64,000 nucleotides of DNA from Candidatus Multivoradales bacterium. GTDB taxonomy: Bacteria; Acidobacteriota; Thermoanaerobaculia; Multivoradales; J023. The notes beneath the pieces are model-generated. The model had not been told where the DNA came from, searched no databases, and was given only the letters and a program-made list of their open reading frames with translations. The translations under genes were made by a program, and so were the position numbers. Numbering within the stretch: the first letter of the stretch is position 1; each line of letters begins with the position of its first letter. The DNA lies in NCBI GenBank assembly GCA_965248925.1, contig CBDFLE010000006.1:2080001-2144000 (forward strand). The letters run 5' to 3'. Shown in pieces: positions 6,879 to 13,478 of this stretch.

Positions 6879-6941
6879 GCTTCGCTGGGATTGCGACCGG
6901 ACGACAGTGCCAGGCATCTTTGTCCTGAAGCGAGGCAGACC

Positions 6942-7193
6942 ATGGTCACCGTGAATGTCAACGAGCTAGAAACCCGGCTTTCCAGTTTGCTGGCTGCCAT
7001 TGAAGGAAAAGACGAGACGATCGTGATCTGTCGAGCCGGGCGGCCGATCGCCGAGTTGCGGCCGCTATCGAAAATTTGTGATCCGCTCCGAGTCCATCCC
7101 GAGCTGTCGCAAATCGAGTTCTATGAAGATCCGATGGCGCCGCTAGAGCCAGAAGACTGTCCGAACTCAGATCCCTCTGGCATCATCGACTGA
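6942..7193 (+). CDS. Phd/YefM family antitoxin, orphan (no toxin follows)
   Basis: 'MVTVNVNELETRLSSLLAAIE...IVICRAGRPIAELRP'; its 3' end overlaps the convergent sulfatase-like gene. Confidence 0.7.
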   Translation: MVTVNVNELETRLSSLLAAIEGKDETIVICRAGRPIAELRPLSKICDPLRVHPELSQIEFYEDPMAPLEPEDCPNSDPSGIID

Positions 7194-9053
7194 CCGCAAC
7201 AACGGCGCCAACTGCGGATCGGCTGCTACCGCCGAGCGCAGCTCAGGGTTCGCGGCCAGTGCCTCATTCACACTTTGGCGGGCTGCCTTGGTGTCACCGG
7301 CTTGCTGCTGGTAGCGAGCCAGGGTGAGACGGAGGCGAGCGTCGTTCGGCTCAAGGTCGACCGCTTGACGTAGGGCGCCGGCGGCGTCGGCTGGGCGCTT
7401 GCTGGCGGCCAGCGAGGCGGCCAGATTGACCCAGGCTTCGATGCGGCGAGGCTGGAGTTGGGCGAGTTCTAACCAGTGAGGCAGAGCGTCGCCGGGGCGA
7501 CCGAGACGCTGCAACGCGTCGGCCAGGGCGAATCGGGCCTCGGCGCGGCTCGGATCCAAAAGAACGGCTTTCTGCAAGCGTGGCGCGGCGGCCTCAAGGT
7601 TGCCGGCCTTGAGCAAGGCGATGCCACTGCGCAACATAGCAAAGTGATTTTCGGGCTCTTGGGCCAACACCTGGTCGAATGCGGCTACGGCTTCGGCAAA
7701 CCGGCCCCTCCCCATCAAGGCTTCGGCAGCCAGCAAGACACGCCGTTCGGCGATCCGGTCTTTGGGGTCGGGCAGGTTTGGCGGCGGCTCGGGATCAGCA
7801 CCCCCGGAACCGACGTAGCCCAGGGCGCGCAGACGCGACAAGGTTTCGGCATCGGCCGACTTGGCGCTTCCGACCGCGGCTGCCGCTTCGATGTGGCGCA
7901 ATGTACTGAGCAGAACATGGGTCTGGCGGCGCTGATCGTCGATCCGGTTGTGCTGTTCGCCCGCGTCTTGGCGCAAGTTGTAGAGCTCGGGGCGCGGGGC
8001 GACGATCATCTTCCAACCGTCGTGCCGGAGGGCCTTTAAGGGCGCCCAACCGAAGTAGACCCACGGCAACCGGGTCTCAAGATAGGCCGGCGCGGGAGGC
8101 AGCGCCTGGCCATTCAGCAGCGGCACAATGCTGCGACCGTCCAGATTCGCCATCTCGGCCTGGCCGAGGAGTTCGAGCACTGTCGGGACGATGTCGATCA
8201 GGCGCACCGCTTGGGCACTGGCGCCGGGCCGTACTTTGCCCAGTTGGTGAAAAATCATCGGCACTAGCATCGTGCTGTCGTAGAGGAAGTAGCCGTGAGT
8301 GTCCTCTTGGTGCTCGCCCAGGGCCTCGGCGTGGTCGGCGGTCAGCACGGTCAGAACAGGGCCCGCCGCGATCTCGCCAATGCCGCGCCGTAGCTCGCCG
8401 ATGGCGTGGTCGACATAGGCAACTTCGCCGTCATAGCTACCCCGTGGACCGGGTTGCCAAAAAGACCTCGGGGGCAGGTAAGGATCGTGAGGATCGTAAA
8501 AATGTAGCCACAGAAACCACGGCGGCTCGGCTTTGGCCAACCACTCCAATGCCGCCTCGACGGTGCCGCCAGCGCGCCTCTCGACCCAACCTTCGACCCC
8601 CTCGGGCATGGTGTCGTCGTAGTGCTCGAAGCCACGGTCGAGTCCGAAGGCGCGCTGCAACGGGAAACCGCTGACAAAGGCGCCCGTGCTGTAGCCCCGC
8701 GCGCGCAAATGCTCGGACAACAACGGCACACCCGCGGCCAGCAAGCGACCGTTATCGCGTACTCCGTGGCGCCGAGGCAATAAGCCAGAGAGGATCGAGG
8801 CATGGGCCGGCAGGGTCAGCGGCACCGGCGACACCGCGCCGGGTAGACGAAAACCAGCGGCTGCCAGGCGGTCTATCTCCGGCGTATCGCCGCGACCCGA
8901 AACCCAACCCAAAGCATCGGGACGAAGAGTATCGACAGTGATCAATAGCAGGTTCGCGGGAGCAGCAGGCAGGTCAGCTGAACCGGCTACCGCGCCCGGC
9001 CCACCGAGGGCTACGGAAAGTAGCCAGCAAACTGCGGTCGAGCGAATGCTCAC
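7167..9053 (-). CDS. Sulfatase-like hydrolase/transferase (alkaline phosphatase superfamily) with C-terminal TPR repeats
   Basis: 'LITVDTLRPD', 'PLTLPAHASILSG', 'HFYDPHDPY', 'YDGEVAYVD', 'TADHAE', 'ELYNL', 'LRALGYV', then TPR helices; signal peptide. Confidence 0.88.
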   Translation of the reverse strand: MSIRSTAVCWLLSVALGGPGAVAGSADLPAAPANLLLITVDTLRPDALGWVSGRGDTPEIDRLAAAGFRLPGAVSPVPLTLPAHASILSGLLPRRHGVRDNGRLLAAGVPLLSEHLRARGYSTGAFVSGFPLQRAFGLDRGFEHYDDTMPEGVEGWVERRAGGTVEAALEWLAKAEPPWFLWLHFYDPHDPYLPPRSFWQPGPRGSYDGEVAYVDHAIGELRRGIGEIAAGPVLTVLTADHAEALGEHQEDTHGYFLYDSTMLVPMIFHQLGKVRPGASAQAVRLIDIVPTVLELLGQAEMANLDGRSIVPLLNGQALPPAPAYLETRLPWVYFGWAPLKALRHDGWKMIVAPRPELYNLRQDAGEQHNRIDDQRRQTHVLLSTLRHIEAAAAVGSAKSADAETLSRLRALGYVGSGGADPEPPPNLPDPKDRIAERRVLLAAEALMGRGRFAEAVAAFDQVLAQEPENHFAMLRSGIALLKAGNLEAAAPRLQKAVLLDPSRAEARFALADALQRLGRPGDALPHWLELAQLQPRRIEAWVNLAASLAASKRPADAAGALRQAVDLEPNDARLRLTLARYQQQAGDTKAARQSVNEALAANPELRSAVAADPQLAPLLRSVDDARGI

Positions 9054-9499
9054 CGAGCCTCTGCGGGCTCTGAGGATTGTGCCTCACCAGCAGCCTCGAC
9101 CTTCTGGGTCTGCACGCCCGAGAAGCGCACTTTCAAACCGGTGTTGGTAACGTAGTCGAGGTAGTAATAATAAGTCTCGCCGGCTTTGACTTCGCAGTCG
9201 ACAAAGAGGTAGCGGCCGACATCTTTTTCGTCGACTCCCTCGGCGCGGACGATAGCGGCATTGCGGCGCACGAAAGGCCCCTGGCGGGTGGCGGCACGGT
9301 AGACCAAATAGCCGTAAACACCGGCCTCGGTCTTGGCCTGCCAAGCCAGCCTGGCAGATGGCTGGCAAGCGGTCACCAGCGGTTCCGCGAGCGAAGCTTG
9401 TGCGGCCAACAACCAGGGGGCCAGTACCAGCCCAACGGCCAGCAAGAAACCCCGGCAGGTGGCCTTCGTCATCAGCAGTCTGGTTCTAATCTTGGCCAT
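9050..9499 (-). CDS. Small secreted FN3/Ig-like beta-sandwich protein
   Basis: AAGGAG RBS before ATG 9499; signal peptide; 'ARLAWQAKTEAGVYGYLVYRA...GPFVRRN...YLFVDCEVKAGETYYYYL'; GTGA overlap with the next gene. Confidence 0.75.
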   Translation of the reverse strand: MAKIRTRLLMTKATCRGFLLAVGLVLAPWLLAAQASLAEPLVTACQPSARLAWQAKTEAGVYGYLVYRAATRQGPFVRRNAAIVRAEGVDEKDVGRYLFVDCEVKAGETYYYYLDYVTNTGLKVRFSGVQTQKVEAAGEAQSSEPAEAR

Positions 9500-10616
9500 C
9501 GCTGACAGCCTCCTTGATAGGGGCGGTGGCGTCAATCTGCCGTATCTCCACGCCAGCCGGCAAAACCCAACCACGATAGGCCACCGGCAGCGGCGACGAC
9601 TGCCCCTGCAGGCGGATCTCCAAAGATCCCACGACGGGTCCGGTAGCCGTCGGCTGGGCGCGTAAGAGCAGCCGACGACAGGCCCCTTCGGTGTCTGCAC
9701 ACGGCTCCTCGCCGAGCCATTCAAAGAGGCCGGCGGGGTCTTCGACGGCGACAATGTGAAAAGGCGTCTGGCTGCGACTGCGCAGTTCGAGCGACTCGGT
9801 GACGGTCTCAAAAACTCGGCCGCCGCTTAGCTTGAGCGGGTTGCGGTCCGGCCGCACGTCGCCAAAAACATTGGCCCAATACCGCAGCACCATCAACGGC
9901 TGGTTGACAACGTTGGTTTCGAGCAGCAAACGCCCTTCTTGCAAACCGAGCGCACCGCCCGCAGCCAGGGAGATTTCGAGCCTACGGCCCTCGCCGGGCA
10001 GGCCCACCGCACCGATATCGCGCAGCGCCGCGCCCGCCGGTGCGTCTCGAACGCCGAGTAGGGAAAGCTGTGGCACTTCGCGGCTAGCTAGCTCGACCAC
10101 CGCCCGACCACCCGTCGCCGGATCGACCCAGCCGAAACCTATCGACAAGGTCTCAGGATCATAGGCCGATTGGACGAAGCCGCTGAGGCTGAGTTTGTAA
10201 TGAGCGCTGCCAGGGCCAACGTCGAAGCCGTCGCGTTCGTCGGTGTAGACGCCCACCCGCATCCCGGTTCTGCCGAGGTGCTCGACCAAAGGCTGGTGAA
10301 CGGTCAGCTCGGCTCGGGCTCCAGGGGCCAGGTCGACTGGCAGGCCTCCTACCCAACCTTCCGGCGAACGCGGCAAGACCGAGACAATACGCACCGGATG
10401 GTCAGACGGGTTCTCGACCCGGAAAACATGCACCACCGTTTGGTGCTGATAGCGTTCGCCGAACTCGGCGTGCGGGGTCGCGAAAACGAGTGCGAGCGGC
10501 GCCTCTCCGGCACCGCTCGCGGTTGCGCAGGCGATGGTCAGAACCATCGCGGCGATCGTTTTCACCCAGCTCGCCAAGCCGACCCCGCCGCCTGAAACGG
10601 CCAGATCGATCCGCAT
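9486..10616 (-). CDS. Secreted protein with tandem Ig-like domains (DUF1573/PapD-like)
   Basis: Signal peptide; 'AEFGERYQHQTVVHVFRVENPSDHPVRI...LAPGARAELTV' is DUF1573-like, followed by two further all-beta repeats. Confidence 0.7.
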   Translation of the reverse strand: MRIDLAVSGGGVGLASWVKTIAAMVLTIACATASGAGEAPLALVFATPHAEFGERYQHQTVVHVFRVENPSDHPVRIVSVLPRSPEGWVGGLPVDLAPGARAELTVHQPLVEHLGRTGMRVGVYTDERDGFDVGPGSAHYKLSLSGFVQSAYDPETLSIGFGWVDPATGGRAVVELASREVPQLSLLGVRDAPAGAALRDIGAVGLPGEGRRLEISLAAGGALGLQEGRLLLETNVVNQPLMVLRYWANVFGDVRPDRNPLKLSGGRVFETVTESLELRSRSQTPFHIVAVEDPAGLFEWLGEEPCADTEGACRRLLLRAQPTATGPVVGSLEIRLQGQSSPLPVAYRGWVLPAGVEIRQIDATAPIKEAVSDGQD

Positions 10617-10629
10617 CCGGTGACTCCGA

Positions 10630-11217
10630 TCAGTCGATCTCGAAGCTCAACAGCTCGACCGGCAAGGTGCCGGTGATGTCGAGGGTGAAGCCGCCGCAAG
10701 AAGCTGCGCCCGCGGCGTAGTACGAGTCGATGTAGATGAAGTAGCTGGCCGGGGTCAGCGGTGCCGGAATCATGTCCGCGCCGGCCGGGTTGGTCTGTGA
10801 GATGTCGGAAGGCACACCACCGCCGATCGCGTCATTGAACGCGATGCAGCTAGTGCCCAGCCCACAGGTGCCGACGAGGAAGATCCCTAGGTCCGCCGCG
10901 GCGGGGGTCAAGGTCATGGTGATCGCAGAGTTGCCGGCACCGACAAGAATCTCGTAGACCAACTCAGGTCCTGGGTACAGCAGGCTGTTGCAAGTGGCGC
11001 TAGCGTAGTCGCTGATCGCCGCCACGCCCGCGCAAGTGTCCAGGGTGGCATCGGTGAAGGGCAGCGCCGAGATTGTAGCCACGGTCGCGCAGGGGCCGGA
11101 GCTATCACCGGGAGGGGCCGGGGCGCCGATGCGCTCGCGCTGAGTTTGCGCGCTGACCGCGCTGCCTACCAGGAGCACCGCCATCACGATGCAGACGAAA
11201 ATGCGAGATCTGTTCAA
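10630..11217 (-). CDS. Secreted Cys-containing PPC-like beta-sandwich protein ending in the motif LPVELLSFEID
   Basis: Strong GGAGGAG RBS, TTG start, signal peptide; 'GPELVY', 'DLGIFLVGTC', 'YFIYIDSY', 'CGGFTLDI'. Confidence 0.8.
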   Translation of the reverse strand: MNRSRIFVCIVMAVLLVGSAVSAQTQRERIGAPAPPGDSSGPCATVATISALPFTDATLDTCAGVAAISDYASATCNSLLYPGPELVYEILVGAGNSAITMTLTPAAADLGIFLVGTCGLGTSCIAFNDAIGGGVPSDISQTNPAGADMIPAPLTPASYFIYIDSYYAAGAASCGGFTLDITGTLPVELLSFEID

Positions 11218-11400
11218 GGGCTTCTCCTCCCTTTCGGGCTTAGAGAGATCTTAGGGACGGCGCCAAACGCCAGGCTCTAGATTGCAGAGAAGGCCACTAT
11301 ACAACCAATCTGGCAACTCTGTCGATGGTAGGAACACCACCGCACCCCATTTCTCCGAACGGTTTGCAAGTTCTGCAAGGACAAGGATAATAGGCGACCC

Positions 11401-12345
11401 ATGCCGCCCTTGATCCTTCTCGGACCTCAGCGTTCGCACCCCACCGTCGCCGAGGAGATCGCGCGTCTCGGCATCGCCGGCCCGGTGGCGGTGATCACCG
11501 CCGGCTGGCAAGAGCGTGAGGCGGAAGACGCGGAATTGGAGGAGCACCTTGGCCGGCCGCTGGTCGATCTGCGGCTCTACCGTCGGGCGGAGCGGGTGTT
11601 CGAGCAAGACCAAGACCTTTTCTTCGGCCTCAGACAGCGCCAGGATGATCTGCGTGAGCTACAGCGACTGTACCGCTATCGCCTCGACTTTGTTCTCGAA
11701 CCGGCCCGTGAGTTGCTCGCCAGCAGCAACGAGTCACCGTTCTTGGAGGAGCAGCGGCAAGCAGCGGTAGCAGCCGTGCGGCGACTCGACAAGCAACACC
11801 TGGAGCGCATTTACGCCATCCACGCCGACCACGATTCGACTTGGCGTCTGAACCAGCGGCCGGCGATTCGCCGTCAGTGCCAGCGGTTGGCCGAGCTGCT
11901 CGAGCCTTGCTCCGCGCTGTTGATCGCTGGCGGTCATGTGGCGATCTTGGTCAACCGGCTGCGCCTTTTCGGCCTGCTGGAGCTAGCCGCCAAATTGCCA
12001 GTGATCGCCTGGTCGGCTGGCGCAATGGCACTTACTGAGCGCATTGTTCTGTTCCACGACACCCCTCCTCAAGGTGCCGGCAACGCGGAGATTCTCGATG
12101 CTGGTCTGGGCCTGCTCAGCGATTGGCTGGTGATGCCGCACGCGGCGCAACGATTGCGCCTGCACGACCAGGTCCGCGTTGCCCTCTTTGCCCAACGCTT
12201 CAGCCCGGCCCGCTGCATACCCTTCGACGATGGCGACCGGCTGCGTTTCGCCTCCCGCCGCGACAGCTCGACCCCCGAGCCCGATGCCAACACCCGCGTT
12301 CTGACCCCACAAGGCACGGTGGCGACGCTCCGGAGCAGCGCATGA
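11401..12345 (+). CDS. Peptidase S51 (peptidase E/cyanophycinase-like, class I glutamine amidotransferase fold)
   Basis: 'LLIAGGHVAIL', nucleophile elbow 'WSAGAMA', 'GLGLL...VMPHA'. Confidence 0.78.
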   Translation: MPPLILLGPQRSHPTVAEEIARLGIAGPVAVITAGWQEREAEDAELEEHLGRPLVDLRLYRRAERVFEQDQDLFFGLRQRQDDLRELQRLYRYRLDFVLEPARELLASSNESPFLEEQRQAAVAAVRRLDKQHLERIYAIHADHDSTWRLNQRPAIRRQCQRLAELLEPCSALLIAGGHVAILVNRLRLFGLLELAAKLPVIAWSAGAMALTERIVLFHDTPPQGAGNAEILDAGLGLLSDWLVMPHAAQRLRLHDQVRVALFAQRFSPARCIPFDDGDRLRFASRRDSSTPEPDANTRVLTPQGTVATLRSSA

Positions 12346-13478
12346 GCGGCGCCCTCGATCAGCTGCTCAAGGACGGCACGCCGAGCCCCGAGGCTCTCGA
12401 CGCGTTCATCGCCGGGAACAGCTTTCCGATCATCGAAGGCCAGCAGCTGACCTTTGTCTATCGCGGCGAGACGGATGCCGTGCTGCTGCAGCACTTCATC
12501 TATGGCCTGCCCACCTCGCAGCCCTTTCACCGGCTCGCCGGCACCGACCTCTGGTATCTGGAGCAAGAGCTGCCGCGCAACTCGCGCATGCAGTACAAGT
12601 TCAATCTGGTGCGGGGCGACGACCACGGCTGGATTCTCGACCCGCTAAATCCACGCCTGGCGCGCGACCCTTTCGGCGCCAATTCGGTGTGTCATTCAGC
12701 CGGCGCCAAACGTCCCGAGTGGACCCATCCCAACGACGACACTCGGCCGGGCAAGATCGAGCTGCTGGACCTGCACAGCGACGCCTTCGGTGGAGACCGT
12801 CAGATCAAGGTCTACCTGCCGGCGCGCTATCGGCCGCATCGACGTTATCCCCTCTTGGTAGTCCACGACGGCAGCGATTACTTGCGCTACTCGGACCTGC
12901 AAACCGTACTCGACAATCTGATTCACCGCTTGGAGGTAGCGCCGATGATCGTCGCCCTGACCGACGCCACCGAGCGCCTCGACGAGTACCCGGACAACCC
13001 GCTGCAAACCCGCTTCTTGGTCGACGAGCTGGTGCCGCTGCTCGAGCAGACCTACCCGCTGCGCGCCGAGCCGGCGGCCCGCTGTTTGATGGGCGCTAGT
13101 TTCGGTGGCGTTGCCACCCTGTCCTGCGCTTGGCGGCGGCCGGGTTTCTGGGGCCGGCTGTTGCTGCAATCGGGTTCGTTCGCCTTCACCGACATCGGCG
13201 CTCACCAACGGGGGCCGCTCTTCGATCCGGTGGTGAACTTCGTTAATGCCTTCCGCCGCGCTCCGGGCCGACCCAGCGAAAAGGTCTTCATGTCCTGCGG
13301 CACCTACGAGTCGCTGATCTACGAGAACCGCTCACTGGTACCGCTGCTGCAATCCACCGGCATGGACGTGCGCTGGGTCGAAGCTCGCGACGGCCACAAC
13401 TGGGAGAACTGGCGCGACCGGCTGCGCGAAGGACTGTCGTGGCTTTTTCCAGGCCCACTGTGGATGGTCTACGAGTAG
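12342..13478 (+). CDS. Enterochelin esterase (Fes)-like alpha/beta hydrolase with an N-terminal E-set domain
   Basis: ATGA overlap with the upstream gene; 'YKF...WILDPLNP', 'VYLP...YPLLVVHDG', 'GASFGG', 'GHNWENWR'. Confidence 0.85.
   Translation: MSGALDQLLKDGTPSPEALDAFIAGNSFPIIEGQQLTFVYRGETDAVLLQHFIYGLPTSQPFHRLAGTDLWYLEQELPRNSRMQYKFNLVRGDDHGWILDPLNPRLARDPFGANSVCHSAGAKRPEWTHPNDDTRPGKIELLDLHSDAFGGDRQIKVYLPARYRPHRRYPLLVVHDGSDYLRYSDLQTVLDNLIHRLEVAPMIVALTDATERLDEYPDNPLQTRFLVDELVPLLEQTYPLRAEPAARCLMGASFGGVATLSCAWRRPGFWGRLLLQSGSFAFTDIGAHQRGPLFDPVVNFVNAFRRAPGRPSEKVFMSCGTYESLIYENRSLVPLLQSTGMDVRWVEARDGHNWENWRDRLREGLSWLFPGPLWMVYE

Follow-up and report, generated by a model that had tools for sequence, protein, structure and literature searches.

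A four-gene operon on the minus strand of a 64,000-nucleotide stretch of the genome of Candidatus Multivoradales bacterium (contig CBDFLE010000006.1, positions 2,080,001 to 2,144,000, hereafter the window) appears to carry an FN3-like domain in two pieces. The first gene (gene i) encodes an exported protein that ends in LPVELLSFEID directly before its stop codon, a tail that probably represents the first strand (strand A) of such a domain, and the third (gene iii) encodes what reads as the same domain without that strand. This tail, which we call the tag, is a genome-wide signal on unrelated exported proteins, a point absent from the original prediction that had been made for this DNA. The tag, the strand-less domain and a peptidase of the C25 family resembling PorU are found together in three phyla, which suggests that exported proteins are tethered or sorted in a manner so far undescribed. 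With a probability of roughly 0.6, we hold that the tag docks its carrier, the client, by completing the fold of the strand-less domain, the acceptor, in trans.

For identification of other proteins with this ending, a search that the original prediction had called for, the 8.0-Mb genome was scanned in six frames. Seven frames ended in PVEL..F.[VI][DE], each with the stop codon exactly three residues past the Phe, and these comprised six intact exported proteins and one fragment. Ends of the form E[LIVM]..[FYW].[VILMA][DEN] occurred in 6 of 48,536 open frames of at least 80 aa, and all six were the proteins with the PVEL tail, a frequency far beyond chance. Except for the tail, the six proteins are mutually unrelated, and in two of them a P-domain immediately precedes the tag. 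None of the six was matched by the sorting-signal models of NCBIfam; against NCBIfam families, P0002 gave only an unrelated match (E 0.35), while the remaining five matched none at E<=0.01. The fragment, a chimeric frame of 65 aa outside the window (C6:1001087-1001283, locus L002 about 9087-9283), joins an N-terminal piece resembling a STAS-type protein (C6:993067-993444) to the last residues of the tagged gene C6:999621-1000304, and is probably a recombination scar. Pairs of FG-GAP/UnbV_ASPIC and TPR lipoprotein-like proteins, together with PPIase-domain proteins, are encoded in the flanks of four of the six tagged genes (L001, L002, L003 and L005).

The tag is equally regular outside this genome. 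Homologues of gene i, 22 in number and reaching down to about 40% identity, stop at the same alignment column in 21 cases, three residues past the aromatic residue, and the last residue of the distant ones is N, H, R or G. With a degenerate DNA pattern covering tag and stop codon, 130 sites were detected in 29 of 41 related genomes as against one for the reversed control, and the last codon of the tag, which the pattern left free, encodes D or E in all but five of these sites. When 251 genomes were sampled evenly across the phylum, 31 sites turned up in 5 of them, with no control matches. When 21 tagged proteins from three genomes were compared, all were different, and Pfam matches were obtained for five only, in unrelated families (DUF4082, Kelch, a lamin-tail domain twice, once together with Chlam_PMP repeats, and a propeller). 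The tag of gene i in Gammaproteobacteria reads LPV[STA]L.S[YF].ID (L006-L009, L015, L018, L025 and L028), from which the Glu and Phe of the acidobacterial tag appear to be dispensable in these modules. A literature search, with supplements outside its scope, found nothing on the tag or on a split FN3 domain.

We then turn to the acceptor. The profile of the gene iii family (alignment A2) is FN3-like, matching the 'Fn3-like protein' of PDB entry 3mpc at E 2e-4 from chain residue 18 onwards, while the Pfam search gave no fn3 match in gene iii. A continuous domain of the form LPVELxxF...VxLxW...YYY, which the original prediction had described, does exist: the protein P0078, a type IX secretion system (T9SS) cargo, contains four undivided copies in tandem ahead of its Por_Secre_tail domain. 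These copies open with [LI]P[VT]ELSSF, or in one case INVELSSF, and continue for example as IPVELSSFTA and then VNLQWTTESE...YYYWL. A2 and P0078 were aligned by hhalign with 96.4% probability (E 1.5e-9); because the alignment begins at the F of PVELSSF, the residues PVELSS have no counterpart in gene iii. The undivided domain is absent from this genome, and our search found no solved structure of it.

The sequences ahead of strand B in the acceptors leave little space for a strand of their own. The predicted mature N-terminus lies 5-8 residues ahead of the V.L.W strand in L014 and L019; in L036, strand B of one acceptor begins about 12 residues past the lipobox Cys and that of a second about 8 past the signal peptide, and in an acceptor from Alcanivoracaceae (L195) strand B follows the lipobox Cys after only six residues. 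In other acceptors just a low-complexity linker, acidic or rich in Pro, Ser and Thr, precedes that strand. Judged from these sequences, the acceptor family starts at strand B, and its seven-strand sandwich would be incomplete, with strand A missing. The proposal that the tail is strand A and gene iii the remainder is thus upheld as far as homology, the missing room for strand A and the co-occurrence of the two (see below) are concerned; the insertion of the strand in trans is what we infer from them as the best reading. Most paralogues of gene iii outside the operon are lipoproteins by visual inspection of their lipoboxes, and gene iii has a possible lipobox, VTAC, five residues ahead of ARLAWQ (also by eye). 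Acceptors in Gammaproteobacteria carry GP[VA].L.W and SPV where the acidobacterial ones carry V.L.W and SGV, differing in step with the tags; covariation of tag and acceptor was rejected as an independent signal, since the differences among 16 pairs merely follow the two lineages. One relative has an acceptor domain attached to the C-terminal end of a PPIase protein (L031:6285-8309), and in another it is joined to a protein that resembles metallo-beta-lactamases by eye (L033).

Tag and acceptor occur in the same genomes. An acceptor was found at E<1e-20 in 28 of the 29 tag-bearing relatives and in 0 of the 12 tag-less ones, where the best match was 1.9e-13. With E<=1e-30 as the limit, the N-terminal, non-catalytic part of the C25 peptidase was present in these same 28 tag-bearing relatives out of 29 and, again, in 0 of 12 tag-less ones (best 4.9e-17). 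The single miss, G015, is a genome of 81% completeness in which the C25 gene begins at a contig end. In the phylum sample, the N-terminal part of the peptidase was detected at E<=3.5e-42 in all 5 tag-bearing genomes and in none of the 246 tag-less ones (best 3e-21 and 4.6e-17); strong acceptor matches were seen in the two of these five genomes that the acceptor search among the relatives had not covered, and in neither of the two tag-less genomes with the weaker C25 matches. Four families (f1, f2, f4 and f7) hold both states, all three features being absent together, which indicates that tag, acceptor and C25 peptidase were gained or lost together several times. Co-occurrence of tail and acceptor, on which the original prediction had been prepared to fall, therefore came out in its favor.

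The association extends to other phyla. Each of the five gammaproteobacterial genomes that harbor the module has 3-9 tags, counted with a looser pattern (0 control matches) because the gene i tags there are without the Glu or Phe, and one C25 peptidase of 920-1015 aa. Tag, C25 peptidase and acceptor are also present in four genomes of Sumerlaeota and one of Alcanivoracaceae. These distributions bear on the idea that the tails are inert remnants of longer proteins that lost the remaining domain, which would agree with the presence of the undivided domain in other phyla. We regard it as the least probable of the explanations considered: the stop position is identical in the 130 genes of 29 genomes, the D/E end is absent from the undivided domain, the tag is kept in all but one of the gene i homologues even at 40% identity, and the tails strictly co-occur with two other gene families.

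The component that tracks the tag best is the PorU-like C25 peptidase, which is encoded elsewhere in the genome, beside the lipoprotein versions of the acceptor. It has a length of 800-1100 aa, and an acceptor gene lies within 2 kb of it in 19 of 28 genomes; in the genome of the window its gene (C6:1003257-1006592) lies immediately upstream of a tagged gene, and a lipoprotein acceptor (C6:1014942-1015421) is 8 kb away. Pfam assigns it to Peptidase_C25 with E 1e-67 to 1e-82, and the His of GHGG and the Cys of TC..SAPFD, which we take to be the catalytic dyad, are conserved without exception in the 15 aligned members. Among NCBIfam models it matches the T9SS sortase PorU (NF033707) best, at 163-224 bits and hence below the cut-off of 420 in 3 of 3 proteins. 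SprA_N and Por_Secre_tail had no match in this genome, although the control genomes were equally silent. The possibility that the tag corresponds to a strand within the peptidase itself was rejected, as 0 of 15 C25 proteins contained a tag-like stretch. Genes for membrane glycosyltransferases of the PMT_2 (GT-C) type, often with TPR tails, recur beside the C25 and acceptor genes, and the linkers of the acceptors that are rich in Ser, Thr and Pro would be plausible targets of O-glycosylation.

The close tracking by this peptidase suggests another role for the tag, namely a sortase-type signal cut by the PorU-like enzyme, with the FN3-like protein as an accessory, substrate or anchor rather than a strand acceptor. 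PorU is reported to cut a C-terminal signal and to transfer its cargo (PMC4560394), and the C25 subfamily follows the tag as tightly as the acceptor does, keeps its His and Cys motifs in every aligned member and has PorU as its nearest family model. We nevertheless consider this explanation unlikely, though it is the strongest of the alternatives. It fails to explain why the tag is strand A of the very domain type that its neighbor has without strand A; no conserved cleavage motif of small residues precedes the tag; and clusters of tags with acceptors are also found at a distance from the C25 gene, in the window operon and the Tahibacter loci. This explanation and docking by strand insertion can also be combined.

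The operon itself is distributed far more narrowly than the tag. Its closest homologues are in Thermoanaerobaculia and Candidatus Multivoradales of the Acidobacteriota, and since gene ii was found in only 6 of the 41 relatives, the operon is an accessory module. The 23 loci examined, each with a gene i homologue, belong to Acidobacteriota or to Dokdonella, Rhodanobacter and Tahibacter. In 21 of them the homologue is followed by gene ii and in 18 by gene iii, the misses being three short contigs and two loci without a module, and an orthologue of gene iv with 49-63% identity is nearby in 19. Genes ii and iii form a single open reading frame (ORF) with a low-complexity linker in 11 gammaproteobacterial loci, and a second module of Tahibacter aquaticus has three tagged paralogues of gene i around one fused ii-iii gene.

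This fusion, together with the restriction to 6 of 41 relatives, speaks against the role of a PapD-like chaperone that gene ii had been given in the original prediction. It likewise bears on the wider idea of a chaperone-usher or type V pilus or fibre, with gene ii as chaperone and subunits that polymerise by strand exchange. The Ig-like product of gene ii would suit such a structure, and so would a C-terminal donor strand, lipoprotein acceptors and a C25 protease, the combination of type V pili according to PMC5954841. However, the four proteins of the operon had no match to usher, PapD or FimA families (Pfam, E<=1), no protein has both a groove and a tag, so that a chain could not grow, gene ii is covalently joined to the acceptor in Gammaproteobacteria, and the clients are unrelated globular proteins. 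We thus find a pilus or fibre very improbable.

Gene iv encodes the best conserved protein of the module, with a Sulfatase match of E 6.4e-30 and TPR families in Pfam. At the site of the sulfatase motif C/S-x-P-x-R it reads T-L-P-A-H, and because of this replacement its sequence marks it as something other than a formylglycine sulfatase, possibly with Thr as the nucleophile. The analysis gave no support to the modifying role that the original prediction had suggested for it. The motif is conserved in orthologues from two phyla: T-L-P-[AS]-H was read in 18 of 23 orthologue rows, the pattern having mis-fired on 2 and found no match in 3. The genome has three further full-length paralogues with sulfatase and TPR parts, one of them about 2 kb from another tagged gene (C6:4707381-4709516).

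The TPR repeats of gene iv raise the question of whether the free acidic C-terminus of the tag is read by a TPR carboxylate clamp, of gene iv or of a neighboring TPR protein, in the way that EEVD tails are read by such clamps. The tag does end in x-[VI]-[DE]-COOH at a fixed spacing from the Phe, and several tagged genes are flanked by TPR proteins. Yet TPR proteins are abundant throughout this genome, the module with gene iv reaches 6 of 41 relatives where the tag reaches 29, and the distant gene i homologues carry N, H, R or G in place of the acidic end. Recognition by a clamp therefore seems to us improbable, only slightly less so than a pilus.

Several observations weigh against docking by strand insertion as well. 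Two of the 23 loci (L023 and L026) have a gene i homologue without genes ii-iv, and the Glu and Phe of the tag vary in gammaproteobacterial gene i. The lone homologue in L026 (8731-9354) has a degenerate tag end, LPVELL followed by 14 unrelated residues, a loss consistent with retention of the tag only where its partner exists. As a generic FN3-like model, the acceptor profile draws 29,234 library matches, many multi-FN3 proteins among them. If gene iii were cut by signal peptidase I after AQA, it would keep SLAEPLVTAC as a possible weak strand of its own. Tags outnumber acceptors in this genome, six to two or three. The E-value limits for strong acceptor and C25 matches were set after the scores had been seen, and the related genomes are non-independent samples. 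Finally, docking without a covalent bond gives no reason for a peptidase to accompany the pair.

Based on these results, we propose the following course of events. The tail of gene i would be the detached strand A of an FN3-like domain, of which gene iii and its lipoprotein paralogues would be the remainder. After Sec export, the tag would most likely insert beside strand B of the acceptor and complete the sandwich in trans, leaving the tagged protein docked on an acceptor that, outside the operon, is usually predicted to be lipid-anchored on a long flexible linker. Since the split lies within the A-B loop, the C-terminus of the client would adjoin the anchored N-terminus of the acceptor. Ligation of the C-terminus of the tag to that N-terminus was dropped as a candidate: the tag lacks a leaving group, and in most acceptors that end is predicted to carry the lipid. 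The constant companions of the wider system would be the tag, the acceptor and the C25 cysteine peptidase with its apparently intact His/Cys pair, and the peptidase might process the pair once docked, or else clear the groove. The window operon would be a self-contained accessory module of client, tandem-Ig scaffold, acceptor and phosphoester-type enzyme, the acceptor being tied to the tandem-Ig protein genetically here and, to judge from the fused genes, covalently in other phyla.

A broader and more tentative idea, to which we give somewhat less than even odds, is that of a tethering and sorting system of its own kind. An FN3 domain split at the A-B loop would reassemble in the envelope from an 11-residue tag and the lipid-anchored rest, the C25 peptidase would act on this sandwich, which resembles the T9SS C-terminal domain (CTD), to fix, transfer or release the cargo, and the system would have spread horizontally among Acidobacteriota, Gammaproteobacteria and Sumerlaeota.

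The layout of the operon agrees with the original prediction: four coupled ORFs were read on the minus strand between 7167 and 11217, with small gaps or overlaps between them. Gene ii starts 13 nt past the stop codon of gene i, genes ii and iii overlap by 14 nt, and the GTG start of gene iv overlaps the stop codon of gene iii by 4 nt. The sequence GGGAGGAG is placed six bases 5' of the TTG start of gene i, and all four products have a hydrophobic, signal-like stretch at the N-terminus (4 of 4, by eye). Genes i and iii matched zero Pfam families at E<=1, and the NCBIfam search added no family for genes i-iii. The 'PPC-like' label of gene i comes from a single homologue with a precomputed PF04151 assignment. 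The match of gene ii to DUF1573 (18.4 bits) is below the cut-off of 26.1, as is that of its Tahibacter orthologue, with E 3.2e-5 and 24.3 bits. An ORF of 100 aa on the plus strand (window 6891-7193) is convergent with the 3' end of gene iv, overlapping it by 27 nt; its N-terminal half resembles, by eye, what we take to be an antitoxin of the Phd/YefM type. The features are collected in the table.

Table. Features of the operon, numbered by position in the window, and glycosyltransferase genes at other loci, numbered by locus.
Feature	Position	Strand	Basis or remark
Promoter-like site upstream of gene i	11296..11325	-	TCGACA-18-TATAGT, 10/12 matches; consensus match only
Gene i, exported Cys-rich PPC-like tag carrier, 195 aa, TTG start	10630..11217	-	ORF, homologues
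C-terminal tag LPVELLSFEID with stop codon (putative detached strand A)	10630..10665	-	Matches IPVELSSFTAV, which opens the undivided domains of P0078
Gene ii, exported tandem Ig-like protein, weakly DUF1573-like, 376 aa	9486..10616	-	Pfam E 0.0022, below cut-off
Gene iii, FN3-like acceptor apparently beginning at strand B (ARLAWQ), 149 aa	9050..9499	-	Profile, PDB 3mpc match
Gene iv, exported alkaline-phosphatase/sulfatase-fold enzyme with C-terminal TPR repeats, 628 aa, GTG start	7167..9053	-	Pfam
PMT_2-type genes	L003:4955-6937, 6999-8900; L036:6414-7901, 11117-12961; L035:824-2227; L039:2351-3673		

Should strand insertion hold, at least three phyla would place diverse exported proteins by a tiny label that completes the fold of another protein. 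To our knowledge, fold completion is established for pilus assembly and for engineered tag/catcher pairs, and not as a general docking signal. The PorU-like peptidase family would gain a function outside type IX secretion, annotators could recognise a class of envelope proteins that family libraries leave unflagged, and protein engineering would obtain a natural pair of an 11-residue tag and a 90-residue catcher. Carriers have been cultured (Tahibacter aquaticus DSM 21667, Tahibacter caeni BUT-6 and Dokdonella soli JCM 15421), which makes the idea testable at the bench.

The proposed system shares features with four known ones. Like the Pap and Fim systems of the chaperone-usher pathway, it would have an incomplete Ig-like fold completed by a strand of another chain. 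Subunits of chaperone-usher pili lack the C-terminal G strand and receive it from an N-terminal extension or from the chaperone, whereas here strand A would be lacking and would be supplied by a C-terminal tail. The cohesin-dockerin pair is similar in that diverse secreted proteins bear a short C-terminal module for which an anchored receptor domain exists. A dockerin, however, is itself a folded module, binds calcium and recognises a cohesin that is already complete, whereas the tag would supply what the fold of its receptor lacks. As with the T9SS CTD and PorU, many unrelated exported proteins bear a signal at the C-terminus and a dedicated C25 peptidase is present; in both systems, the signal would belong to an Ig-like sandwich, and the undivided form of the domain itself sits in a T9SS cargo. 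The signal here comprises 11 residues as against a domain of about 75, the peptidase reaches 224 bits where the PorU cut-off is 420, and what remains of the sandwich would be a lipoprotein of its own. Type V pili of the FimA/Mfa1 type, finally, resemble it in a lipoprotein partner with an open groove, a C-terminal donor strand and a protease of the C25 family, and differ in that the fold here is FN3-like and not FimA-like, that the missing strand is absent from the gene instead of being cut off, and that the donors are unrelated globular proteins without a groove, which would lead to docking and not to polymerisation. Processing by Rgp is required for polymerisation of Mfa1 (PMC5954841). By analogy, the nearest precedents for the peptidase would be PorU acting on an Ig-like C-terminal domain and the Rgp-dependent strand exchange of type V pili (PMC5954841).

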